This document shows, piece after piece, positions 976 through 13,621 of a DNA stretch of 34,053 nt. A program made the position numbers and the translations under genes. This DNA comes from Pseudomonadota bacterium (GTDB taxonomy: Bacteria > Desulfobacterota > Desulfobacteria > Desulfobacterales > RPRI01), in NCBI GenBank assembly GCA_043825875.1, contig JBDRRF010000014.1, positions 1 through 34,053 on the forward strand, in the 5' to 3' direction. How positions within the stretch are numbered: the first letter of the stretch is position 1; each line of letters opens with the position of its first letter. The notes under the pieces are model-generated. The model made no database searches. It had not been told where the DNA came from and saw only the letters and a program-made list of their open reading frames with translations.

Positions 976-1154
976 CGAAAATAATATAAATGATTGCGCA
1001 ATGAAATGACGTATTTCCGTCAAAATTGCCGGATGCTACATTACAAGGAAGAAGTTACATTTATAGTTATAAAGCGGTTATTCAATTCAATTGTTAATTC
1101 TTATTTAGCTTCAGCTTCAGCTTTCCCCTTTCTTATTCTTTTCTTCCCTGTCTT

Positions 1155-1245
1155 AATTAACCCCGCCGCCTGTTTATAATACTAACCATCACATCGTAAG
1201 CCTATCTGCGGTCAAGAGTTATTCTTCGGGCAATAATGGCATGTT
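1155..1245 (-). pseudogene. Decayed third copy of the [DE]RR-repeat microprotein gene
   Basis: acatcgtaagcctatctgcggtcaagagttattcttcgg resembles acatcgtaagcctgcctgcggtcaaggctgtttcttcgg in 4775..4990. Translates ARRITLDRR*AYDV versus DRRNSLDRRQAYDV (CAG to TAG at 1202-1204). Boundaries approximate. Confidence 0.7.
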
Positions 1246-1293
1246 TAGATAAATATAATCGGTTGCAAAATTTATAATTTTTATCTCAAACAG

Positions 1294-3756
1294 TTAATCG
1301 ATAACCACCGGTTTTATTCGCCAGATATGATCGCAGTATTCACTGATTGCGCGGTCTGAAGAAAATTTCCCCATCCTTGCTACGTTCAGCATGCTCATAC
1401 GAAGCCACTCCTCTTGCTTTAAATAGGTTTGAGCGACCTGCTCCTGGCAGGCGATATACAGCGGATAGTCTGCACACAGCATATACTCATCATGCTCGCG
1501 GAGCGTTTTTGTAAGCGGTATGAACATGTCACGGTCGCCGTGTGAGAAAAGGCCGCTTTCAATCAGTTCGATTGCCTCACGCAGCTCGTTGTTTGCCAGG
1601 ATTACATCCTGCGGGCGATAGCCTTCATGTCTTTTCTGAACCACTTCATTTGCAGTAAGGCCGAAAAGAAAGAAATTTTTGGCGCCAACTTCTTCGCGGA
1701 TTTCTACATTGGCGCCGTCCAGTGTACCTATCGTTAGCGCTCCATTTAAGGAGAATTTCATATTCCCTGTGCCGGAAGCTTCCTTTCCTGCAGTTGAAAT
1801 CTGTTCGGACAGATCGGCTGCGGGAAAGACTCGATACGCATTTTTCACGTTGAAATTTGGAAGAAAGGCTACCTTTAGCAGATCGGCTGCTTTAGTTTCG
1901 TTGTTGATCACATCGGCAATGGAGTGAATAAGTTTAATAATCAGCTTTGCCATAAAATATCCGGGCGCGGCTTTACCGCTGAAGATGACCGTGCGAGGTG
2001 GCATGTCCTGCGTCTGCCCTTTCATGATACGGTTATAAAGGGTGATAACATGCAGTACATTAAGATGCTGTCTCTTGTATTCGTGAATTCTTTTGGCCTG
2101 GATGTCAAAGAGCGAATCCGGGTTTGTTACAATACCTGTGCGATTTATGATGATTTCAGCAAGGAGCGCCTTGTTTTGGCGTTTGATTGCGCGCCATTGA
2201 TCAAGAAAAGATGAGTCTTTAGTGCATGCTTCTAATTTCTTGAGTTGGGATAGATCCTTGATCCATCCGTCACCTATGCACTCTGATATTAGCAAAGCAA
2301 GTTTGGGGTTGGAAGCAAGGACAAAGCGGCGCGGTGTAACGCCGTTTGTTACGTTCGTAAATTTTTCCGGAGTGATATGATTAAAGTCGTTTAAAACCAG
2401 TTTGCGTAAAAGTTCGGTATGCATTTGTGCAACGCCGTTTATTTTATGGCTGCCGATACAGGCCAGATTTGCCATTCGCACATAATGCTCTCCACCTTCA
2501 TCAATTATGGAAAGCCGCTGGATCAAGTTTTCATCGTCCGGGTAGTTTATGCGAATATCATCTAAGAAACGCCGGTTAATTTCATAGATGATTTCCATGT
2601 GACGCGGTAGAATAATCTTAAAGAGTGGTACGGACCATTTTTCCAGTGCCTCTGACAACAGCGTATGATTGGTGTAGCAGAAGGTTCTTCTTGTAATATC
2701 CCATGCATTGTCCCATTCCATGTTATAAACATCGACTAAAAGGCGCATTAATTCAGCAACACCGATTGCCGGGTGTGTATCATTAAGTTGGATAGTGTAT
2801 TTTTCATGAAATTTATCTATCGTTTTTTCCCGTTGGAAGTATATGCGGATCATGTCCTGCAGGGCGCAGGAAACGAAAAAGAACTGTTGCATCAGCCGCA
2901 GCTGCCTGCCTGCAAGTGGCTCGTCATTGGGGTAGAGTACCTTGGTAAGGTTTTCCGATCCGATCTTGTCATGAACTGCACCATAGTAATCGCCGATATT
3001 GAAAGATTTAAAATCAAAAGACATGGTTGCTTCCGCCTTAAACAGGCGCAACATTATGACAGAATGCGAGCGATAACCGGTAATCATTGTATCATAGGCA
3101 ACGCCGCGCACACTATGATCGGGTATCCAGTTGACACGGTATTCTCCGGAATCTTCATATTTACTTTCCGTATAACCGCCGAAGGGAATATCGTAGATAA
3201 TTTCCGGACGCGCCACTTCCCACGGATTTCCCTTGCGCAGCCACTGGTCGGCAACCTCCACCTGCCAGCCGTCCCGGATTTCCTGCGTGAAGATGCCGAA
3301 TTCATAACGGATGCCATAGCCTATAGACGGGATATTGAGTGTTGCAAGTGAGTCCAGATAGCAGGCGGCAAGCCGCCCAAGTCCTCCGTTTCCTAAGCCC
3401 GGTTCTTCTTCCTGATCTATGAGTTCCTGTAAATCCAGCCCAAGTTCAGAAACGGCCTGTTTTACCTCTTCATAGATGCCTAGGTTGATCATATTATTTT
3501 CCAGTAATGGTCCGAGAAGAAATTCTGCCGAGAGATAGCAAACGGTTCTGCTTGCTTTCTGATAGTAGGTACGTGCTGTTTTCGCCCATTGCGCCAATAT
3601 CCGGTCGCGAATAGCATAGGCGACAGCAAGATAGTAGTCATTTTTAGATGCAACGGGTGCAAAGCGGCCCTGAACGCAAATAAGATTGTCGAGAATAGAT
3701 TGTTTAATCTCTGCCACATCGCTGCCGGTTCTAACTATGCATGTCAAATTTTCCAT
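1294..3756 (-). CDS. glgP: Glycogen/starch/alpha-glucan phosphorylase (GT35), paralog 1
   Basis: GLGNGGLGRLAAC, QLNDTHP, KRIHEYKRQ, PLP-lysine motif EASGTGNMKF. Start chosen at ATG 3756 (RBS AAAGGA). Confidence 0.96.
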   Translation of the reverse strand: MENLTCIVRTGSDVAEIKQSILDNLICVQGRFAPVASKNDYYLAVAYAIRDRILAQWAKTARTYYQKASRTVCYLSAEFLLGPLLENNMINLGIYEEVKQAVSELGLDLQELIDQEEEPGLGNGGLGRLAACYLDSLATLNIPSIGYGIRYEFGIFTQEIRDGWQVEVADQWLRKGNPWEVARPEIIYDIPFGGYTESKYEDSGEYRVNWIPDHSVRGVAYDTMITGYRSHSVIMLRLFKAEATMSFDFKSFNIGDYYGAVHDKIGSENLTKVLYPNDEPLAGRQLRLMQQFFFVSCALQDMIRIYFQREKTIDKFHEKYTIQLNDTHPAIGVAELMRLLVDVYNMEWDNAWDITRRTFCYTNHTLLSEALEKWSVPLFKIILPRHMEIIYEINRRFLDDIRINYPDDENLIQRLSIIDEGGEHYVRMANLACIGSHKINGVAQMHTELLRKLVLNDFNHITPEKFTNVTNGVTPRRFVLASNPKLALLISECIGDGWIKDLSQLKKLEACTKDSSFLDQWRAIKRQNKALLAEIIINRTGIVTNPDSLFDIQAKRIHEYKRQHLNVLHVITLYNRIMKGQTQDMPPRTVIFSGKAAPGYFMAKLIIKLIHSIADVINNETKAADLLKVAFLPNFNVKNAYRVFPAADLSEQISTAGKEASGTGNMKFSLNGALTIGTLDGANVEIREEVGAKNFFLFGLTANEVVQKRHEGYRPQDVILANNELREAIELIESGLFSHGDRDMFIPLTKTLREHDEYMLCADYPLYIACQEQVAQTYLKQEEWLRMSMLNVARMGKFSSDRAISEYCDHIWRIKPVVID

Positions 3757-3853
3757 GACCGTTCCTTTTAGGCTTTTCCGGCAAATTAGCATCCGGATTA
3801 ATCAGGTTACGAAGTAGAAAAGTATAATTCTCCAGTTTCTCTCAAAAGACTAC

Positions 3854-4000: not shown

Positions 4001-4657
4001 CTATGTTTCAGGATAGTTGTCCAAATAAAGTTCGAGCGCACGGGAGAGGGATGATAGAAATGCCACTTGTTTTCGATTACGAACCATACGCAAGACATAC
4101 CATACTACTACGAACATTCCCACCAGCCAAATCATACCCACAATCCTATTGATCATTGCCGGACTCAAAAGACTGTGCAAGAGTTCTGAAAACAATTTTC
4201 CATGATCGTCTTCAGAAACCAGTTTGATTAGCCCCCACCAAATCGTTATGCTGCTCAATAATAGTGCAGACTTACCCAGGGCTGATCTGCCCAGGATTGC
4301 CAAGGGATGGTAATCGCCCTTAAGCCCGGCCAATTCCATCATGGTCAATTTATGGTAGTGATGCAACTGGTCATATTCATATTTTTGAAAGAATTCAAAC
4401 AAGGTCACTATAGCACAAGCGTCTTCGCAGAAGGTGCTTTCATATTTTTGATACGTTGCCGGTTTACCGTTATCGTCATGATAGTTTTTTTCCACCTCAC
4501 TGCGGATAAGCAAAACGTCCGGATGGTGTTTTGAAACCTTGTTTTGTTTTAGGTATGAGCGGGCTTCGTTAAGAAATTTCAGAAAATCTGCAATCTGATC
4601 TGCCCATGTTTTATAAACCATAGTTGATTTGAACTGTTTCATATACGACTCCAACAT
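4001..4657 (-). CDS. Hypothetical membrane protein (two C-terminal hydrophobic helices)
   Basis: 218-aa ORF with hydrophobic segments ALLLSSITIWWGLI and IVGMIWLVGMFVVVWYVL; no family recognised. Confidence 0.65.
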   Translation of the reverse strand: MLESYMKQFKSTMVYKTWADQIADFLKFLNEARSYLKQNKVSKHHPDVLLIRSEVEKNYHDDNGKPATYQKYESTFCEDACAIVTLFEFFQKYEYDQLHHYHKLTMMELAGLKGDYHPLAILGRSALGKSALLLSSITIWWGLIKLVSEDDHGKLFSELLHSLLSPAMINRIVGMIWLVGMFVVVWYVLRMVRNRKQVAFLSSLSRALELYLDNYPET

Positions 4658-4774: not shown

Positions 4775-4990
4775 TCAGACGAAATAAGATGAAACAAAAA
4801 TACTGCTCCACTTATTTGTTCTCATCCAACCTTTTCGCTGTTCTCCATTTTTTCTTCTATCAAAGGCCGGTCTTCGACGTTCCTGACCTAATATATCTGT
4901 GGCTATAACATCGTAAGCCTGCCTGCGGTCAAGGCTGTTTCTTCGGTCAATATCAGCGCGTTCCCGTCTGTCTGGTCTTAAATTATCCAT
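4775..4990 (-). CDS. 71-aa Arg-rich [DE]RR-repeat microprotein, copy A
   Basis: Intact paralog at 12376..12591 (44/71 identical by hand alignment, same length); RBS GAGG; conserved upstream promoter. Confidence 0.85.
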   Translation of the reverse strand: MDNLRPDRRERADIDRRNSLDRRQAYDVIATDILGQERRRPAFDRRKNGEQRKGWMRTNKWSSIFVSSYFV

Positions 4991-5045
4991 AATAAGATTT
5001 CCTCATGGTAATATAAATGTAACAGTTTTTTACCGAATAGAAATT

Positions 5046-5074
5046 ATCTTAACAGATTACAATTTGCTTTTCAA
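5046..5074 (-). promoter_or_regulatory. sigma70-like promoter for microprotein copy A
   Basis: TTGAAA-17 bp-TAAGAT with extended TGT; same architecture upstream of copy B. Confidence 0.6.
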
Positions 5075-5098
5075 GCGTCAAAATTAATATTTCTTGGT

Positions 5099-5125
5099 AT
5101 ATCGGCATGTTTTCAAGAAAGGTTA
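5099..5125 (-). promoter_or_regulatory. sigma28 (FliA)-like promoter upstream of microprotein copy A
   Basis: TAAC-N15-GCCGATAT versus consensus TAAA-N15-GCCGATAA. Confidence 0.5.
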
Positions 5126-5163
5126 AGAGGTATTTAGAATGAATGGTTTTATTATGCTCATCT

Positions 5164-6765
5164 TTATTTGATTTTTACGTCGCTTAAGTCTTGATAGAGT
5201 TGTTTGTTATACGAAAAAATGAGTCCTTCCTCAAAATCGATTTGCCCTTCTTTATATAATTTTGCAAGGGACACATCGATAGACATAAATTCTTCACATC
5301 CGGTTTCCATCTGGGAGCGGATCTGATGCAGTTTGCCTTCCCGTATCAGGTTTCCTACCCGATTCGAATTTGAGAAGCGTTCCAACACCAGAAGCTGTTT
5401 GCTTTTGTCTTTATTGAGTACCAGACGTTGTGCTAAAGAAAGCAGCAGAGTGTCCGCCAATAACATGCTGATCAGGTTTTGCTGATTTTCCGGGAACATG
5501 TTTACTATTATGCGAATTACTGCTGTGGAATTAGCGGCATTCATAGTGCTTAGAACAAGGCTGCCGGTTCCGGCGGCTCTTAAAGCAATTTCAAAAGATT
5601 CAGTATCACGCAATTCACCAATGACTACCACATCAGGGGATTGCCGGAAAACAGAGCGCAAACCTATGGCAAAACTTTGGGTATCTCTGCCGATTTCCCG
5701 CTGGTTGACATTACTTTTTTTGTGTTTGTGCAGATATTCTACCGGATCTTCCAAAGTGATAATATTGCATTGCCGGTTTGTATTGATGATATCTATCATG
5801 GAGCAAAGGGTCGTTGATTTTCCATGGCCGGCCGGGCCGGATATGATTATCAGGCCATGAGGTTTTAATGCATAATTTTTTATCCATTCAGGAAGGTTGA
5901 GTTCTCCCATTGTGGGAAGGTTGTCGTACAGACGACGAATATTAATGGATACGGATTTTCTTTGTTTATAAAAATTAATTCTGAAACGGCCTGTATTCGG
6001 ATATGTTACTGCTATGTCCAAATCATTGGTCTGCTGGAATTTTACCCAGCCGGAAGCATTGTTACTTAAAAGCTCTTTGGCATATAATTCACAATCAGCA
6101 GGGGTTAAGGAAGCACTCGACAGTCGTTTGACCTGATTGCTTACTTTAATGGACGGTGGGACTCCTGCCGTCAGCAGCATGTCGGTAGCCCCTGTTTTGA
6201 CAAGATAGGCCAGAAGCGATTCGATTTTGGGAGAAGAATGGGCTTCACTTTTATCTTGCAGTGCTATAGCCTTGATTGTCTTACCAATGACATCATTACC
6301 ATAATTTGAAGATAAAAAGTTAAGTGCTGCCTCCATCATAAAAAACGGTACCACCACGGGTTTGATTTTGATTCCCATTGTAAATTCCAGATCGCTGACT
6401 ACCCCAAAATCATGGGGGCTGACCATGCCAAGAGTAAGGATATTGCTTTCTTTGGATATGGGAAGAATTTTATATTGTTTGATCTGGTTTAGTGGAATTA
6501 ATTTAATTATTTCATGAGGAATGTTGATACCAAACAAGTTAATATGGGGCACGCCAAATTTTTTCGACAGAAATTTCAGCATATTATCGGTTGACACAAA
6601 ACCCATCTTTATAAGAAGCGAGCCTATGGGCATGTCAACCTGAGACCGTCTGGCAAGGGCTTTTTTAAGTTGTTCTTTTGTTATGAGTTTGGAGCTGACA
6701 AGTTCTTCTCCAATAAGGCCTTTAATACTTAGAGAAGTACTGCTGCTCTTTGGTTCGACCGGCAT
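5164..6765 (-). CDS. PilT/PilU-family type IV pilus ATPase with N-terminal MshEN/GSPII_N-like domain
   Basis: N-terminal LIGEELVSSKLITKEQLKKAL...PIGSLLIKMGFV; GRFRINFY, Walker A GPAGHGKST, ITLEDPVEY, NQREIG, PDVVVIGELRD, and AIRNLIRE-like RVGNLIRE. Confidence 0.88.
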   Translation of the reverse strand: MPVEPKSSSTSLSIKGLIGEELVSSKLITKEQLKKALARRSQVDMPIGSLLIKMGFVSTDNMLKFLSKKFGVPHINLFGINIPHEIIKLIPLNQIKQYKILPISKESNILTLGMVSPHDFGVVSDLEFTMGIKIKPVVVPFFMMEAALNFLSSNYGNDVIGKTIKAIALQDKSEAHSSPKIESLLAYLVKTGATDMLLTAGVPPSIKVSNQVKRLSSASLTPADCELYAKELLSNNASGWVKFQQTNDLDIAVTYPNTGRFRINFYKQRKSVSINIRRLYDNLPTMGELNLPEWIKNYALKPHGLIIISGPAGHGKSTTLCSMIDIINTNRQCNIITLEDPVEYLHKHKKSNVNQREIGRDTQSFAIGLRSVFRQSPDVVVIGELRDTESFEIALRAAGTGSLVLSTMNAANSTAVIRIIVNMFPENQQNLISMLLADTLLLSLAQRLVLNKDKSKQLLVLERFSNSNRVGNLIREGKLHQIRSQMETGCEEFMSIDVSLAKLYKEGQIDFEEGLIFSYNKQLYQDLSDVKIK

Positions 6766-6800
6766 TAATTAATCTCCTTATCTATTCGCATTAAGGATAT

Positions 6801-7706
6801 TTACCTTAATGCAATGACCCGATTCCGTCCTGTTTCTTTAGCAAGATAAAGTGCTTCATCCGCCTTTTTTAGCATTGAATCGGCCGAATCTTTATTGTCT
6901 TTGCACTCGTATACACCAATGCTGACGGTAATTCTGATAGGATCGGTGACATTAAAGCTGTGCTCTTTTTTTTCTATTATTTTCCTGATGCGTTCTGCCA
7001 GTAAAGTTGCTGAATCAAGATTGGTTTCAGGCAGAATGCAGCAGAATTCCTCTCCGCCAAACCTTACCAGAAAATCATTATTTCTTACCATAGATGATAT
7101 TTCATCGGCAATCGATTTTAAAACCAAATCTCCTGTTTGATGACCATACATATCATTTACGTTTTTAAAATGATCAATATCAATCATCATAAGGCTCATA
7201 GATCTACAGCAACGGTTGTGTTTTTCCAATTCATCTTCAAGTTTGGTGGAAAGAAATCGCCTGTTATAGGCTCCGGTCAGACTGTCTCTGAGATTCATCT
7301 CAATAAGTTTTTTTTCGTAGATTGCAAGTTGGGTAACATCCTGGACCGTGATACAGATGTGCGTTATAGATTCATTTTCACCGCGAACCGGACAGATGGA
7401 ACAGCTTTGCTGCATGAATTCAAACTGCGACTGAAAGGAGCTATAGGTTTTTATCGGGAAAAGATATGGATGCATTTTCCGGGAAATGTAATTGATATTG
7501 CCGAATTTTAAAGAGGACTTAAAATTACGCAAAAAGGCAGGAGTATTTAAATTCGGAAATAAATTGAGAATATCTGATCCGATAATCGAATCTTGTTTGA
7601 TACCGCTATGAACACTCATCCAATTATTCCAATACCGGATATGCATATTCTTATCCAGTATAATTACTCCGATATTCAATGTGTTTAAAATATTATCAAA
7701 ATTCAT
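6801..7706 (-). CDS. PAS-domain diguanylate cyclase (GGDEF)
   Basis: N-terminal PAS (GVIILDKNMHIRYWN), DSLTGAYNRR, DIDHFKNVND, I-site RNND five residues before active site GGEEF. Confidence 0.95.
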   Translation of the reverse strand: MNFDNILNTLNIGVIILDKNMHIRYWNNWMSVHSGIKQDSIIGSDILNLFPNLNTPAFLRNFKSSLKFGNINYISRKMHPYLFPIKTYSSFQSQFEFMQQSCSICPVRGENESITHICITVQDVTQLAIYEKKLIEMNLRDSLTGAYNRRFLSTKLEDELEKHNRCCRSMSLMMIDIDHFKNVNDMYGHQTGDLVLKSIADEISSMVRNNDFLVRFGGEEFCCILPETNLDSATLLAERIRKIIEKKEHSFNVTDPIRITVSIGVYECKDNKDSADSMLKKADEALYLAKETGRNRVIALR

Positions 7707-8350
7707 TCGTATTGACTCAAAAAAGTCTGGAGTGCCTGTTTGAGCCAGCTAACGGATTCATGGCTTGTGACAAGAAATAGACATCCGGTAGCGCTGTTGC
7801 TGCTGAAGTGAAAGATTGTACGAAGTATAATAACGATATTTCTGGGATCTGACATGTCATCTGATAATGCCCTGTCTGCCAGATTCCCGGTGATGATCCG
7901 CGGAGGGGAATAGTTTACAACATCTCCAAGAAGTTCGGCAATTTTTCCGACGCAAGCCCCGATCAGTATATTACCTACTTCAAGCAACAAGTCTTCTTCA
8001 AGCATTCCCATAGGGTCCGATTCAAGAATTTCTTCATCCAATTCCTTACCAAGAACGGATAATAATCCTTTGCCTGCTCCAAGTGTAAAAATAAGCAGCG
8101 CGAGTCCCTTAAATTTTGAGAAGAAATTCTGCTCGACTATAGTAATATTGTTATGATCCTTTATTTCGGATTTGATATGTTCGAGAAGATCAGATGTTTT
8201 TAAAACTGAAATTGTGGGCACGCTTAAAACAACATACAGGTCGATGACCTCGGAAATATCGGCTGCGGCAGACCCAAAGCCTATATTCATTATTTCCTGG
8301 AGGGTATCTCTTTCTTCTTCTGTTAGTACTTCCTGCTCATTATTATTCAT
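7703..8350 (-). CDS. CheC-family phosphatase
   Basis: Two ExxN motifs (DTLQEIMNIG; LLEVGNILIG); 4-bp overlap with the cyclase gene. Confidence 0.88.
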   Translation of the reverse strand: MNNNEQEVLTEEERDTLQEIMNIGFGSAAADISEVIDLYVVLSVPTISVLKTSDLLEHIKSEIKDHNNITIVEQNFFSKFKGLALLIFTLGAGKGLLSVLGKELDEEILESDPMGMLEEDLLLEVGNILIGACVGKIAELLGDVVNYSPPRIITGNLADRALSDDMSDPRNIVIILRTIFHFSSNSATGCLFLVTSHESVSWLKQALQTFLSQYE

Positions 8351-8353
8351 AGG

Positions 8354-8728
8354 TTATTTCTGCTTCCGGTATTGAGCCAAATCGGCAAAGAGCTTTGCTA
8401 CCGCCTCCTTTGATGGTGGTTTTTTCAGAAATGCAAAAGCACCCAGTGACATTACCCTTTCTTTTGTAATTGGCTGAACATCCGCACTCGATACGATGAC
8501 AATCGCATCCGGGTAGCTTTTTTTGATCTTTTCCAGTACTTCCATGCCGTTCATTTCGGGCATGGTTAAATCAGTTATGGTAATATCGGGATAAATTGTT
8601 TCAAACCGTTGCAGCCCACTTATGCCGTCCCCTTCTTCAAAAAGCTCCATAGGTTCATCCTTCGGGATACAACTCTTGAGAATTTTCCGGGCTACGGGTG
8701 AATCGTCGATAATTAGAATCTTTTGCAT
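8354..8728 (-). CDS. Single-domain CheY-like response regulator
   Basis: IIDDS, phospho-acceptor ITDLTMPEMNG, SSA, KKP; RBS CAGGAG. Confidence 0.93.
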   Translation of the reverse strand: MQKILIIDDSPVARKILKSCIPKDEPMELFEEGDGISGLQRFETIYPDITITDLTMPEMNGMEVLEKIKKSYPDAIVIVSSADVQPITKERVMSLGAFAFLKKPPSKEAVAKLFADLAQYRKQK

Positions 8729-9027
8729 GTTTTCTCCTGTGAGAGGTTGCTCCTGATCCTTTTTAAGCGGGTTTTTATCATAAAAAAATCATCCTATAGA
8801 ATTATCATATTTTTGATTTGATTCGATAAAATGCTATTTTCGAATTCTGAAATATATGATAAGCAACTTTTTATGTCAATTGGAAAATAAGCCTGGAAAA
8901 AATGAAGATCCGTACTTTTGGAAAAAATTTCCAGGTATGTTATACTGGCAAAAAAAAAATAAGTAAGGAAATTTAACTGTGGCAAATTTGCTAATATGTA
9001 ATCCATGTAACTCTCAGAGGACAATAC

Positions 9028-9624
9028 ATGAATGATAAAAGCAAAATAGAAAATAAAGAGCTCCACACAGCAATAAAAATTCCCGGATGGGCAACCATCG
9101 TATCTGTAGTAAGCGGCTTAGCATTTTTGGTTATTCTGCTTATAATCGCAGTTTTTATTGCTCATCCCACAGATTTTCAGATATTTATCTTTCGCATCGT
9201 TATTGCGTTGGCTGCTGCTGCTTTTGGTGCGACAATCCCCGGTTTTTTAAAAATAGATCTGCCTGTGGGGAAAAAAGGACTTATAACAGCAGGAGGAGCA
9301 ATTGCTTTTTTTGTACTGATTTATTTTATGAACCCTCCAAAATTGGTTTCAGATAAACCTTTGCCACCTGAAATTATTAAGCAGCCCCTTATGGGTTTTA
9401 TTTTGGATCAGGAAGGCGAACCATTACCCGGCGTTAGTGTGACCGTATTAGAGCATAGTGTTAATGACGCTACCGATGGAAATGGTAAATTCTCTTTTGA
9501 GATTAAAGCAGAGAAAAATTCTTCGGTACGCCTTATGGCTCAAAAACAAGGTTTTAAAACACATCGGCAGGATGTTACGCTGGGAAATACTAATTTGAGT
9601 TTTAAGATGGATAAAAAACCATGA
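9028..9624 (+). CDS. Membrane protein (about 3 TM helices) with C-terminal carboxypeptidase-regulatory-like beta-sandwich
   Basis: Hydrophobic N-terminal half; GFILDQEGEPLPGVSVTV...TDGNGKFSF...AQKQGF; 4-bp overlap with next gene. Confidence 0.8.
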   Translation: MNDKSKIENKELHTAIKIPGWATIVSVVSGLAFLVILLIIAVFIAHPTDFQIFIFRIVIALAAAAFGATIPGFLKIDLPVGKKGLITAGGAIAFFVLIYFMNPPKLVSDKPLPPEIIKQPLMGFILDQEGEPLPGVSVTVLEHSVNDATDGNGKFSFEIKAEKNSSVRLMAQKQGFKTHRQDVTLGNTNLSFKMDKKP

Positions 9625-12281
9625 CAAAGCCAGCCTCTACACATATTTGTCTTAAGATTATCCTTTGCTTTGCTATTTATTTTCTCATATGCCCGGCTTT
9701 ATCGGCAAAAGCTAAACAAGAGTTGCGCGGTAAGATTTATATGCTTGGTGAAAATGATATTAGAATTCCCGTAACAAATACAACCGTTCGTATTAAGAGT
9801 ACTGATGATTCAAATATAACATCAAGCACAGGCATGTTCAGAATTTATTTGCCGGATATATTTAGGCCTGGAGAAACCGTGACTCTTGAAGTGGAAAAAC
9901 CAAAGTATAGGATACTTCATCCATTTGCAGGCGAAGTTAGGATACCGGCAAACCTATTGAAGGATCTGGTTGAAATCATTTTGGATAAAGAAGGTTCGCA
10001 TCGCTTTATGAATGATGCTGCATTTGCGAAATTAATTGAAAATACTGCCAATAAGTCCAAGCAGCAAATTAAGGCCGATGATAAACGCAAAGCAGTAGAT
10101 TTGAGCAGCGATATAAAGGAATGGGCTGTAAAACTAGGTTTAGGGATTGAGGATGTACAAGCAGGACTGGATAAATGGGCAGCCGATATAGAAGCAAGGC
10201 GGGAGAATTTTCATGAGCTTGCCCTGGCCGCATTTTACAAGCAGAAATTTAAAGACGCTGCACAAATGGCCTACCAATCGGCTATGCAATATGAAAAACA
10301 ATTGGCCGGGTTGCCTGAGCATGAAAAGAGAATCAATGAAAAAAAGCATAAGCTAAAAGAAAAGATCATTCGTGATTATCGTCTTGCCGGTGATGCCCAT
10401 TATAATGACTACCGGTTTGAAGATGCTCTTGTTGCTTATCAGAAGGCAATGGTTTTAGTTAATAAAGCCAATAGTCCTAAAAAATGGGCGTCCTTAATGA
10501 ATGACATAAGCACAACATACTGGAATTTTGGCGTCAGAGCCGATGGAAGTGCATCCCGTCTGTATCTTAAAAATGCAGCAAATGGTTACCGTGAGATATC
10601 AAAAGTCTATACCCGCGAAAGTTTGCCTCTGTATTGGGCCGGGGCTCAGAATAATATGGGGCTTGTGTTGCAAGAGCAAGGAATTCGAACTGAAGGCGAA
10701 GAGGGTACAAGATTGCTATGCGATGCGGTTAAAGCGTTTGAGGCAGCTTTAATGGTTTGCACCCGCGAAATTTTGCCACAACAATGGGCTATGACCCAGA
10801 ACAATATGGGGAATGCACTTTCACAACAAGGGGATCGTACGGGAGGAAAAGAAAGTGTGAGGCTGTTTAGCAGGGCAGTTAAAGCATACAAGGCAGCATT
10901 GACTGTCAGGACACGTGAGAGTTCGCCTCATGACTGGGCTATGACCCAGAATAATATGGGCATTGTACTAAAGGAGCAAGGAAACCGTGTGGGAGGTAAC
11001 GAAGGATTAAGATTACTGCGTGAAGCGGTAGAAGCATACAGGGCAGCATTGACTATCAGAACACATGAGAATTTGCCCCAGGACTGGGCCATGACCCAGA
11101 ACAATATGGGTATTGCACTTTCGGAACAAGGAACCCGAACAAGAGGCAAAGAGGGGGCAAGATTGCTGGATGGGGCAATTAAATCATACAAAGCGGCTTC
11201 GACAGTCTATACCCGTGAAAGTTCGTCTCAGGATTGGGCTATGACCCAGAATAATATGGGGCTTGCATTACGAAGTAAAGGGATACTAACAGGAGGTGAA
11301 GAAGGAACCATATTGTTAAGCAAGGCAGTTGAAGCATTTAATGCAGCTCTAACGGTTTATACCCGTGAGAACCTGCCTCAGGACTGGGCTATGACGCAAA
11401 ATAATCTGGCGATTACCCTGCAAAATCAAGGAACCAGAACTGAAGCTGATGAAGGGCTAAGATTGCTGGAAAAAGCTATTAATACTTATAATACAGCTTT
11501 AACGGTAAGAACACGCGAGAGTCTGCCTCAGTACTGGGCTGATACTCAGAACAATCTGGGAACCGCTTTAAAAGAACAAGCTTTAAGGGTGGAAGATGGT
11601 CAGAAAAAAGATTTGTTTCAAAAAGCAGTAAAAGCATTTAAGAATGCTTTAGAAGTAAGGACTTATAAATACCTTCCCTTGCAGTGGGCTAAAACCTATA
11701 AAAATATGGCAGAAACATACTATTTAATGGAAGACTGGGCCAATGCAGCTACATGCTATAGTAAGGTACTTAAAGTTTATCGAAAGGATTATACAGCTTA
11801 TGAAAGGGCCAGCTACTTATATCATGAGCGACTTTTTCAATTTGATAAGGCATACGGATTAAGCTTTTACTGGATCGTAAAATTAGAAAACGTCAATACC
11901 TCATCACTAAGCCAATTCATTGAAACACATTTTACTACAGCTCGTTTTGAAAAAGCAGAAGAGATTCTGGAAGAAGTACTTCCCAAATGGAACAGTAACG
12001 ATCCTTTTTATATACCTCTTTGCATCATCGAAATTGCAAATCTTGTGGCGCTCAAAAAAAACGATGCAGTTTCCGATAATATAGATGAACTCGTTTCCGT
12101 TATTAAACAACAACCGGCAGACTTTACCATAGGCTGGTCTTTTAATGGTGTAAAACATTTTATTAAAAATTCAGAAAAGTTAAAACCAGATAGTAAAAGG
12201 CTTCTGTCTTTTTTTGCTGCTGTTGAAGGTCCCGACCGGGATACTATTATTAAAAGGTTACAGAATGTCCAGAAAAAATAA
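9621..12281 (+). CDS. Secreted/periplasmic tetratricopeptide-repeat protein
   Basis: Signal-peptide-like N-terminus (IILCFAIYFLICPALSA), beta-rich N domain, repeated WAMTQNNMG..L...G..T.G.EG..LL..A..AY.AAL.V.TRE..P units. Confidence 0.88.
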   Translation: MTKPASTHICLKIILCFAIYFLICPALSAKAKQELRGKIYMLGENDIRIPVTNTTVRIKSTDDSNITSSTGMFRIYLPDIFRPGETVTLEVEKPKYRILHPFAGEVRIPANLLKDLVEIILDKEGSHRFMNDAAFAKLIENTANKSKQQIKADDKRKAVDLSSDIKEWAVKLGLGIEDVQAGLDKWAADIEARRENFHELALAAFYKQKFKDAAQMAYQSAMQYEKQLAGLPEHEKRINEKKHKLKEKIIRDYRLAGDAHYNDYRFEDALVAYQKAMVLVNKANSPKKWASLMNDISTTYWNFGVRADGSASRLYLKNAANGYREISKVYTRESLPLYWAGAQNNMGLVLQEQGIRTEGEEGTRLLCDAVKAFEAALMVCTREILPQQWAMTQNNMGNALSQQGDRTGGKESVRLFSRAVKAYKAALTVRTRESSPHDWAMTQNNMGIVLKEQGNRVGGNEGLRLLREAVEAYRAALTIRTHENLPQDWAMTQNNMGIALSEQGTRTRGKEGARLLDGAIKSYKAASTVYTRESSSQDWAMTQNNMGLALRSKGILTGGEEGTILLSKAVEAFNAALTVYTRENLPQDWAMTQNNLAITLQNQGTRTEADEGLRLLEKAINTYNTALTVRTRESLPQYWADTQNNLGTALKEQALRVEDGQKKDLFQKAVKAFKNALEVRTYKYLPLQWAKTYKNMAETYYLMEDWANAATCYSKVLKVYRKDYTAYERASYLYHERLFQFDKAYGLSFYWIVKLENVNTSSLSQFIETHFTTARFEKAEEILEEVLPKWNSNDPFYIPLCIIEIANLVALKKNDAVSDNIDELVSVIKQQPADFTIGWSFNGVKHFIKNSEKLKPDSKRLLSFFAAVEGPDRDTIIKRLQNVQKK
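10485..11834 (+). repeat. About nine intragenic tandem repeats with exact 150-bp (50-aa) period
   Basis: ATGACCCAGA at 10791, 10941, 11091, 11241; in-register Trp codons from 10485 to 11685; last unit degenerate. Confidence 0.9.
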
Positions 12282-12301
12282 ACAGGCATCCCTTTTTATA
12301 A

Positions 12302-12346
12302 ATTAGCAAAGGATATACTAATAGAAATAATATTTCCTTTGCTAAT
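12302..12346. terminator. Hairpin between convergent genes, possible bidirectional terminator
   Basis: Perfect 12-bp inverted repeat ATTAGCAAAGGA / TCCTTTGCTAAT. Confidence 0.55.
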
Positions 12347-12375
12347 CCATGAAAACTATATATTTAAAAAACAGG

Positions 12376-12591
12376 TCAAGTGGAAAAAACCGATACAGGG
12401 ACACTGATCCACTTATTAATTCTTGTCCAATCTTTTCGTAATTCTCCGTTTTTTCTTCTTTCAAAGGTTGGTCTCCGACGTTCCTGGCCCAATATATCCA
12501 CAACTAAAACATCATAAGACTGCCTGCGTTCAAGAGTTCTTCTTCGGTCAACTTCAGAGCGTTTATGCGTGCTTGGTCTTAAATTATCCAT
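12376..12591 (-). CDS. 71-aa Arg-rich [DE]RR-repeat microprotein, copy B
   Basis: Paralog of 4775..4990; G-rich RBS; shared downstream TATATTTAAAAAAC. Confidence 0.85.
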   Translation of the reverse strand: MDNLRPSTHKRSEVDRRRTLERRQSYDVLVVDILGQERRRPTFERRKNGELRKDWTRINKWISVPVSVFST

Positions 12592-12688
12592 AATAAAATC
12601 CCCCCAGGATGTAAGTTATTATGTTAATATAAATGACTGGTTTTTCACAGAACAGGAAGCCCAAATATTGTGTTTTAAATCTTAAATT

Positions 12689-12717
12689 TTCTTAACACAC
12701 TAACACTTGTTTTTCAA
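12689..12717 (-). promoter_or_regulatory. sigma70-like promoter for microprotein copy B
   Basis: TTGAAA-17 bp-TAAGAA with extended TGT, matching copy A. Confidence 0.5.
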
Positions 12718-12839
12718 GTGCCAATAACAACTACAAAATATATCAAAGGATATCATTATCGTTATCCTGTTTCACAGGTTTTGGCATGAGATTGTGATAG
12801 TCTCGGCGGCAATTTTATCCATTAAGTTTTTAGATTGCT

Positions 12840-13352
12840 TTAGCGACTATCCTTTGACAGCTTGAGCAGACGGTTAGGTTGCAATGTTTCACATTTTGGG
12901 CATGTTCCGGAATACCAGTGAATTGCGGTGCTACACGCATGACATTGCCAGCGTTTTTCCTGTTCATGAATCCAGTTTTTGATACCAATCAGGCGCATAT
13001 CAATCATATTTTTAACCGCTTCAGCATGATGAGGCATACCATCATTATTAAAGTCAGCGATTAAAGAACATGGGAAATCTTTGCATTCTGTGCAATGGCC
13101 AAAGTCTGATTTTTTTTCCACACACAGGCGGATCTTGCAACCCATACAATAGGATGTTAGCAGGCCTCCAGCACGACAGCCATCGCAGTCTATTTCATCC
13201 ATATTGATTTTCTCGTCTGGCACCGGCAAATCATTTCTAATGACTTGCATCATCTCATCAATAAACTGTGGGTTGTTGTCACGTCTGGCCCGGTAAAGTG
13301 AACAGGCGCCGCAGTAAAGCCCGCAGTTTGCTGCCAAATGTTCTTTAGACAT
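12840..13352 (-). CDS. DUF3795-like Cys-rich protein with C-terminal zinc ribbon
   Basis: NCGLYCGAC, CDGC, CKIRLC, CTECKDFPC, CHAC...CPKC; start ATG 13352 with RBS AAAGGA. Confidence 0.85.
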   Translation of the reverse strand: MSKEHLAANCGLYCGACSLYRARRDNNPQFIDEMMQVIRNDLPVPDEKINMDEIDCDGCRAGGLLTSYCMGCKIRLCVEKKSDFGHCTECKDFPCSLIADFNNDGMPHHAEAVKNMIDMRLIGIKNWIHEQEKRWQCHACSTAIHWYSGTCPKCETLQPNRLLKLSKDSR

Positions 13353-13621
13353 AACATGTTCCTTTCTCATGTGTTTTTGTTGAGGTTGCAAAGATTATCT
13401 TTTAAAACCAGAATAACCTGAATTTTTGAAAATTTAAAGTTCTTATTTTCTATATTTATAGGCTCAGGCAAAATAATTAAAGAGGTTAACAGTTCTTTTG
13501 CATGAAATACCGTATGTGCTATACTGGCAAAATAAAGCGGAAGACAGCACTTTGATGGAGTTATAATCCTGATATATTCAATATATTGCAGAATATTACT
13601 ATATACATAACCCAATGATAC

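Follow-up and report, generated by a model that had tools for sequence, protein, structure and literature searches.

CSP1, a peptide derived from the protein CleD, binds an intercalated dimer of cyclic dimeric guanosine monophosphate (c-di-GMP) through the motif DRR-x11-[R/K]RxxD and is described as unfolded when free and folded on binding, with tyrosines that stack on the bases and a glycine turn (PMC7382256). Binding of this type is submicromolar, with two c-di-GMP per peptide, and in Caulobacter the Cle arginine-rich region forms the tail of a CheY-like receiver domain. Two-part PilZ receptors (YcgR-type PilZN-PilZ, PlzA) are a second described group for c-di-GMP, and YcgR places its output or targeting domain N-terminal to PilZ. 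Arginine-rich RNA-binding peptides are also known, and Arg-Asp pairs read guanine in DNA. Here we compare these systems with two microprotein genes, copies A and B, in a 34,053-nucleotide (nt) stretch of DNA (contig JBDRRF010000014.1 of assembly GCA_043825875.1; GTDB lineage Desulfobacterota, Desulfobacteria, Desulfobacterales, RPRI01), the whole of which is called the window below. Both genes encode an unnamed domain of about 55-60 residues, for which we coin the name ‘DRR domain’. Our favored reading, to which we give a probability of roughly 35%, is that this domain is an induced-fit binder of a polyanionic target, either alone or as the output of nucleotide-sensing domains.

Copy A (positions 4775..4990, minus strand, stop codon included; profile match E 9.5e-45) and copy B (12376..12591, minus strand, stop codon included; E 1.0e-43) are present in the list of open reading frames (ORFs) exactly as a preliminary description of this DNA had them, namely as two intact paralogues of equal length, 71 amino acids (aa). 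Compared position by position, they share 44 of 71 residues and 164 of 216 nt (44/69 identities in BLASTP, E 9e-34). Both copies also have the [DE]RR units and W-x-R-x-N-K-W ending of that description; in copy A the units read DRRNSLDRR and ERRRPAFDRRKNGE. Differences between A and B number 13/17/22 by codon position. The ratio of non-synonymous to synonymous substitution rates (dN/dS), which had been proposed as a check, is 0.43 for A versus B and 0.15-0.52 over the ten pairs of five genus copies, and because of these ratios the copies in the genus are taken to be under moderate purifying selection. One homologue of A (P0001, 92% identical) is named only ‘hypothetical protein’, and a genome of the same genus (G003) encodes another with 65 of 71 residues identical. 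Neither copy has a Pfam domain above the curated cut-off, the one sub-threshold hit being SYF2 on B, and neither has an NCBIfam match. Against a 74-sequence family profile A and B give E-values of 1.7e-21 and 3.1e-22, and every invariant column of the alignments A1, A3 and A4 is present in both. By profile and alignment, A and B are real members of a conserved, unnamed, modular domain family.

Judged by profile matches, that family is far wider than the two paralogues. A profile search of 1.84 billion cluster representatives returned 161 family proteins at E<=1e-3 and 7 at E<=1e-10; a word-based protein search returned 4 close relatives only. Family statistics and the alignment cover 153 of the 161 representatives. 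Members are mostly stand-alone proteins of 55-130 aa (median 81 aa; 147/153 are no longer than 130 aa), and in 121 of the 153 the domain ends at most 10 residues from the C-terminus. The consensus reads [KR]-R-S-G-[IVL]-D-R-R-S-G-x-D-R-R-x-x-Y-D-L-x-Y-F-x-x-G-G-x-E-R-R-x3-E-R-R-x3-E-x-R-x-G-W-V-R-[VI]-x-x-W-S-S-V, and D-R-R, E-R-R, E-x-R, both tryptophans and S-S are each kept in about 130-153 of the 153 sequences; as read from this alignment, conservation is positional and goes beyond mere composition. The domain thus combines four [DE]RR units and an ExR with two aromatic positions that are conserved, a turn at GG and, at its C-terminus, a hairpin of the form W-x-R-x3-W-S-S, with the spacing DRR-x3-DRR-x14-ERR-x3-ERR-x3-ExR accompanied by Y, Y/F, GG and the two W. 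To our knowledge, a strict hexameric [DE]RRxxx period with invariant acids has no described counterpart. One could object that A and B are not functional proteins at all, being chance ORFs or parts of an RNA or DNA element: the ORFs are short, the dN/dS of the pair is only moderate and the codon-position counts given above can be read the same way. This objection has next to no probability, as it is contradicted by conservation across the family, in which 161 diverged homologues show position-specific conservation. The domain also keeps its reading frame within fusion proteins, Rfam gave no match in the window, and a third copy there, described below, is alone in being decayed.

Family members have a median net charge of +7 and consist of 19% arginine, 15% acidic and 9% aromatic residues. 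An AlphaFold2 (AF2) model of the microprotein built with 74 sequences reaches a predicted local distance difference test (pLDDT) score of 70.9 and contains only a helix at 28-34 and a hairpin at 55-57/63-65. For the same protein, the ESM Atlas gives a model with a pLDDT of 0.39; every one of its nearest clusters is labeled ‘hypothetical protein’, and Thermodesulfobacteriota are their most frequent source. The domain alone is strongly basic and, on these models, predicted to be largely disordered. Searches of the PDB at E<=10 gave 0 matches, both with Foldseek and with a sequence profile. Source names of family proteins are ‘hypothetical protein’ only, and a literature search, with subscription journals outside its reach, yielded no description of the family. 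The earlier suggestion that the family might be uncharacterized is therefore upheld by Pfam, NCBIfam, PDB sequences and Foldseek alike.

One possible hypothesis for the function of such a peptide, and the one we favor, is that the DRR domain, disordered alone, would bind a polyanionic cellular target by induced fit, with nucleic acid as a first guess. Arg-Asp pairs together with aromatic residues might then read bases and phosphates. In relatives that also carry PilZ or NUDIX domains, the DRR module would supply output or targeting in a one-component-type regulator, and the stand-alone microproteins would be small regulators controlled by their expression level. The likeness to arginine-rich RNA-binding peptides is that of a basic, aromatic-containing peptide, predicted to be disordered, that could fold on nucleic acid. 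The family, its motifs, modularity and fusions and its dispersed contexts are observed; that it binds anything, what it would bind and its use as an output are inferred.

The modularity of the domain is seen most clearly in its fusions. In a genome of the phylum (G060), a 209-aa protein has a DRR domain at residues 3-66 (E 1e-25) followed by a PilZ domain, whose match of 22.3 bits lies just under a cut-off of 22.5 and whose RxxxR and DxSxxG motifs read KRQYFR and DISMGG. This DRR+PilZ architecture is found in 18 clusters of about 208-222 aa, with 43-100% identity over ~98% coverage, 8 of which have a precomputed PilZ hit. Their alignment keeps the DRR invariants common with A and B as well as the PilZ motifs (KRxxxRF, DISRGG), and the RxxxR loop lies in the linker between the N-terminal DRR domain and the PilZ barrel. 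An AF2 model of the fusion shows the PilZ barrel with moderate confidence and has a pLDDT <50 over residues 1-94. PilZ itself is the sole Pfam match of the fusion, the DRR half having none, and the PilZ half used as query finds no match in the window’s genome. In these relatives the DRR domain stands N-terminal to a canonical PilZ barrel, as the partner domain does in two-part PilZ receptors. Unlike those receptors, the window proteins have no PilZ part, and the DRR domain has no similarity to PilZN or xPilZ. Sequence architecture thus ties the domain to c-di-GMP signaling in a manner that the fusion does not specify; it fits both DRR as a second c-di-GMP site and DRR as a PilZ-controlled output.

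Further architectures include a NUDIX+DRR cluster of 6 members and proteins of 235-243 aa in which the DRR domain lies between two helical parts (in G583, G493, G595, L115 and P0154). Neither the N-terminal nor the C-terminal helical part of the latter has a Pfam match. In the examples at L154:5702-6415, L155:7125-7841, L156:7041-7745 and L115:3640-4368 the N-terminal helical part includes the stretch YLWGAYNNFD...FYFFSFYF, and at L115 and L156 the genes adjoin mnmE and a 538-aa radical-SAM gene. Partial matches to the DRRSG repeat also occur in 712-aa cNMP-binding proteins and in ~139-aa proteins with a HisKA/DHp segment. Two such ~139-aa paralogues in one genome (G163; L028:1501-1920, plus strand, and L034:1240-1752, minus strand) have five DRRSxx units, a GW and a HisKA/DHp-like segment without an ATPase domain; from their sequences they look like a separate small signaling family made from the same DRRSxx unit. 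Fusions appear to be a minority of the family because a search for longer relatives gave one protein, although this is weak evidence.

An alternative reading of the PilZ link is that the DRR microprotein is a direct receptor or sponge for c-di-GMP, as the preliminary description proposed. A disordered peptide would fold round an intercalated c-di-GMP dimer and then buffer the signal or gain binding to a partner; arginines would read the Hoogsteen edges, aspartates and glutamates the Watson-Crick edges, and Tyr/Trp would stack on the outer bases. The motif style is indeed like that of CSP1: both are short and linear, with D-R-R and RR..D/E, aromatic residues and a glycine turn between arginine clusters, and the mostly coil models of the family would fit the unfolded free state of CSP1. 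The conserved fusion to PilZ and the near-invariant acid before each RR speak for it too, and a DRR sensor could have the NUDIX and DHp partners as its outputs. Set against these points is the motif itself. The exact Cle motif DRR-x11-[R/K]RxxD occurs in 0/153 members, even with [DE] allowed at its end, and a loosened DRR-x9-16-[RK]Rxx[DE] fits 26/153; the usual unit, RRxxx[DE], is one residue longer, and DRR-x12-16-[RK]Rxxx[DE] is found in 75/153. The family spacing is thus DRR-x14-RR-x3-[DE] versus the x11 spacing of Cle, with about four to five [DE]RR units plus the W-x-R-x3-W-S-S hairpin versus two Cle motifs, and it is stand-alone where Cle is a receiver-domain tail. The PilZ motifs RxxxR and [D/N]xSxxG are found together in 0/153 members, A and B have no PilZ (PF07238) Pfam hit, and among relatives only the ~209-aa fusions have the pair, in their separate C-terminal half. 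The PilZ domain of the fusion is, moreover, already a complete c-di-GMP site, and the number of DRRSxx units varies in related proteins, which suits the binding of a polymer better than one defined pocket. By these comparisons, the family is a short, arginine-rich, putatively fold-on-binding recognition peptide outside both Cle/CSP and PilZ membership.

The genomic distribution of the domain gave a sample of loci in which the c-di-GMP reading could be weighed further. A copy is present in 4 of 17 genomes of the window’s genus, and 17 of 401 sampled phylum genomes match at E<=1e-3, 8 of these 17 (G000 included) at E<=1e-15. A back-translated DNA pattern, which matched both window copies with none expected by chance, found at least 117 stretches in a collection of species-representative genomes. 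From 80 of these at least 117 stretches, taken with their flanks, we obtained a sample of 54 loci with 56 true family genes (E<1e-10 over at least 50 profile positions). Among the matches listed, 48 of the 54 loci are titled Desulfobacterales, other Desulfobacterota or ‘delta’, 3 are contigs of gammaproteobacterial metagenome-assembled genomes (MAGs), two of them from one MAG, and 3 have unspecific titles; a cultured strain, Desulfosarcina alkanivorans PL12, is the source of a single one (L093). Several genomes carry two or three copies.

Up to three genes per side of the 56 family genes were scanned with Pfam, giving 274 neighboring proteins in 342,909 bp from the 54 loci; gene calls were greedy longest ORFs of at least 90 aa, so that small neighbors are missed, and some loci are related. 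The background was five genomes of 29.97 Mb in all, the window’s own among them, in place of the genomes that hold the 54 loci, with 96 GGDEF, 72 PilZ and 32 MshEN matches, or 1.10, 0.82 and 0.37 expected in 342,909 bp. Neighbors of c-di-GMP type were 2 GGDEF genes (one also EAL, both at L111), 1 PilZ (L059), 1 MshEN ATPase (L103) and 1 HDOD (L044). The enrichment for GGDEF, EAL, PilZ or MshEN genes that had been anticipated is absent from these 274 neighbors: GGDEF and PilZ together were seen 3 times versus 1.92 expected (Poisson P 0.30), and MshEN once versus 0.37. The adjacency of A to a PAS-GGDEF gene and an MshEN ATPase, of L111 to GGDEF-EAL and GGDEF genes and of L103 to an MshEN ATPase would favor a c-di-GMP receptor, but the homologue of A in G003 has no GGDEF genes beside it, and at the gathering score no riboswitch was found in the window or in the 34 of 54 loci scanned. 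Those 34 loci had no other Rfam regulatory element either. A Desulfobacterales MAG has a 6S RNA gene at L036:2917-3099 (minus strand), ~3 kb away from its family gene.

Taken together, the c-di-GMP link first proposed is kept in the form of a conserved PilZ fusion with intact RxxxR and DxSxxG, and is not borne out by Cle or PilZ motifs within the family, by its neighborhoods or by the adjacency lost in G003. We consider a direct receptor or sponge a tentative possibility; proposed from motif style, the sponge mechanism comes close behind the polyanionic-target reading. Slightly less probable again is a broader form of it, in which DRR domains would make up a novel receptor class for c-di-GMP, a stand-alone, repeat-built linear motif. 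This motif would fold round an intercalated dimer of the nucleotide, or a larger stack of it, would occur widely in sulfate-reducing Desulfobacterota, and would serve as a buffer or adaptor alone and as a second nucleotide clamp beside PilZ.

The same neighborhoods bear on two other explanations. A gene for a SPOR-domain protein lies immediately upstream on the same strand in 4 of the 54 loci (L037, L039, L067, L080) versus ~0.27 expected (24 per 29.97 Mb), and SLT/LysM, FtsA-FtsZ, FtsH and FtsEX neighbors occur at other loci. The domain might accordingly be a protein-protein adaptor or a self-associating charged ‘polar zipper’ that docks on the acidic surface of a conserved machine, possibly linked to the envelope or to division, and its alternating acid-Arg-Arg pattern could self-pair. 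The SPOR signal was, however, spotted post hoc among hundreds of Pfam families and comes from two independent groups only, with two unrelated SPOR architectures; most loci have no such neighbor, and the family has no signal peptide or membrane segment, while SPOR domains act outside the cytoplasm. An adaptor of this kind is accordingly unlikely. Radical-SAM neighbors in 6 of the 54 loci (L057, L061, L064, L070, L092, L115) would suit a precursor of a modified or exported peptide, similar to a ribosomally synthesized and post-translationally modified peptide (RiPP). Yet the radical-SAM subfamilies differ and their distances vary, and radical-SAM genes are common in these genomes. A precursor is rejected, with only a trace of probability left to it, in view of conservation that spans the whole domain to the C-terminus in place of a leader-plus-variable-core layout, and of the embedding of the domain inside larger cytoplasmic proteins.

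Overall, the contexts of family genes are dispersed and clade-specific, as expected for a general small regulator. A diverged subfamily has a fixed block of its own, consisting of CysZ/EI24, a ~124-130-aa CxxC...CxxC Trp-rich protein, the family gene, NAD-epimerase, UDP-glucose dehydrogenase and PepN (L046, L049, L050, L054, L068, L069, L072, L088, L096, L102, L112), often with a class III cyclase near. The CxxC...CxxC protein of this block has no Pfam hit; by eye, we take those of L049 and L068 to be CULT/yippee-like.

One-component regulators such as CRP and NrtR combine a nucleotide module with a nucleic-acid-binding output. The polyanionic-target reading is narrowly favored because of the parallel that this offers to the nucleotide modules seen here (PilZ, cNMP-binding, NUDIX), together with the +7 charge, the aromatic residues and the dispersed contexts. 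For one PilZ protein, PlzA, DNA and RNA binding is reported to depend on c-di-GMP (PMC9915621). Several points count against our interpretation. The DRR domain matched no known nucleic-acid-binding family or fold in Pfam, NCBIfam, the PDB profile search or Foldseek. The almost invariant acid before each RR is unusual for plain backbone binders and fits guanine-nucleotide recognition too. A NUDIX or DHp partner might just as well be the output of a DRR sensor, hints of RNA among the neighbors are only weak (MnmE/MnmG, a DEAD helicase, an RF-1-domain protein, Tpt1), and both the binding and the expression of A and B are putative.

Within the window, copy A lies downstream of four co-oriented genes, all on the minus strand, which end 173 nt upstream of it: REC (8354-8728), CheC/CheX (7703-8350), PAS-GGDEF (6801-7706), each assigned by Pfam, and, directly upstream of A, a T2SSE-type ATPase with an MshEN domain (5164..6765; Pfam T2SSE 2.3e-38, MshEN 7e-13). 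The position of A downstream of, and co-oriented with, diguanylate cyclase and MshEN genes thus holds as first described; that it forms an operon with them is at most a suggestion, A having a promoter-like site of its own. The homologue of A in G003 likewise comes after the MshEN ATPase and before a glycogen phosphorylase, the gene order being phosphorylase, MFS, MshEN ATPase, microprotein, phosphorylase, and beside it there is no REC-CheC-GGDEF block and no copy B or B neighbors. In the window (6801-13391, compared with L009 of G003), the MFS gene and the ATPase are separated by DUF3795, copy B, genes for a TPR and a CarboxypepD_reg protein, and the REC-CheC/X-GGDEF set; a 218-aa ORF (4001-4657) is also extra in the window. 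From this comparison, one genome would have gained these genes by insertion or the other lost them by deletion. The REC gene is a separate gene, four genes from A and without an arginine-rich tail. A ‘split Cle’ composed of this REC protein and microprotein A was dropped because REC neighbors are not recurrent and the REC-CheC-GGDEF block is absent in G003.

B-like copies of two further genomes (G013 and G007) lie in unrelated contexts, and the one in G007 (L011:8578-12196) is beside AIPR, DUF4420 and HNH genes and resembles a defense-type island. The decayed third copy in the window is a pseudogene remnant at ~1097..1246 on the minus strand (profile E 2.6e-4, DNA alignment), downstream of glycogen phosphorylase (1294-3792, minus strand), with three internal stops, one TAG and two TAA. 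On its other side is an H-NOX (HNOB) gene cut by the window start (1-885).

Expression signals were predicted for both intact copies. A purine-rich ribosome-binding site precedes each of A and B; that of A, read from the sequence, is GAGGA at 5000..5004 on the minus strand, 9 nt before the ATG. The start context tcttattATGGA is common to all five genus copies. Copy A has a sigma-70-like promoter at 5046..5074 (minus strand), TTGAAA-17-TAAGAT with a TG extension and 9/12 consensus matches. For copy B, a promoter-like box read by eye at 12689..12717 (minus strand) is TTGAAA-17-TAAGAA with TGT before it; it is missing from the promoter scanner’s output because its second hexamer ends in A. The box recurs upstream of the homologue in G013, of the same genus, there with a further shared upstream stretch, so that the conserved promoters noted at first sight are retained as predictions by consensus match. 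Since same-strand upstream gaps of family genes are long (84-633 nt, n=33) and A and B have promoter boxes, the family genes, these two among them, are probably independent transcription units. An Rfam scan found no match within the window at the gathering score, c-di-GMP riboswitches included.

The DRR domain is defined here as a conserved modular domain that is named in no library and is present in at least 161 sequence clusters from environmentally important lineages of sulfate reducers, and it is linked to PilZ, a c-di-GMP sensor, by its fused form. Should the domain bind c-di-GMP itself, it would be a second natural linear peptide-sized receptor for this nucleotide and a ready-made sponge tool. 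If it is instead an output controlled by PilZ, it would be a new effector module and would show what c-di-GMP controls in these bacteria.

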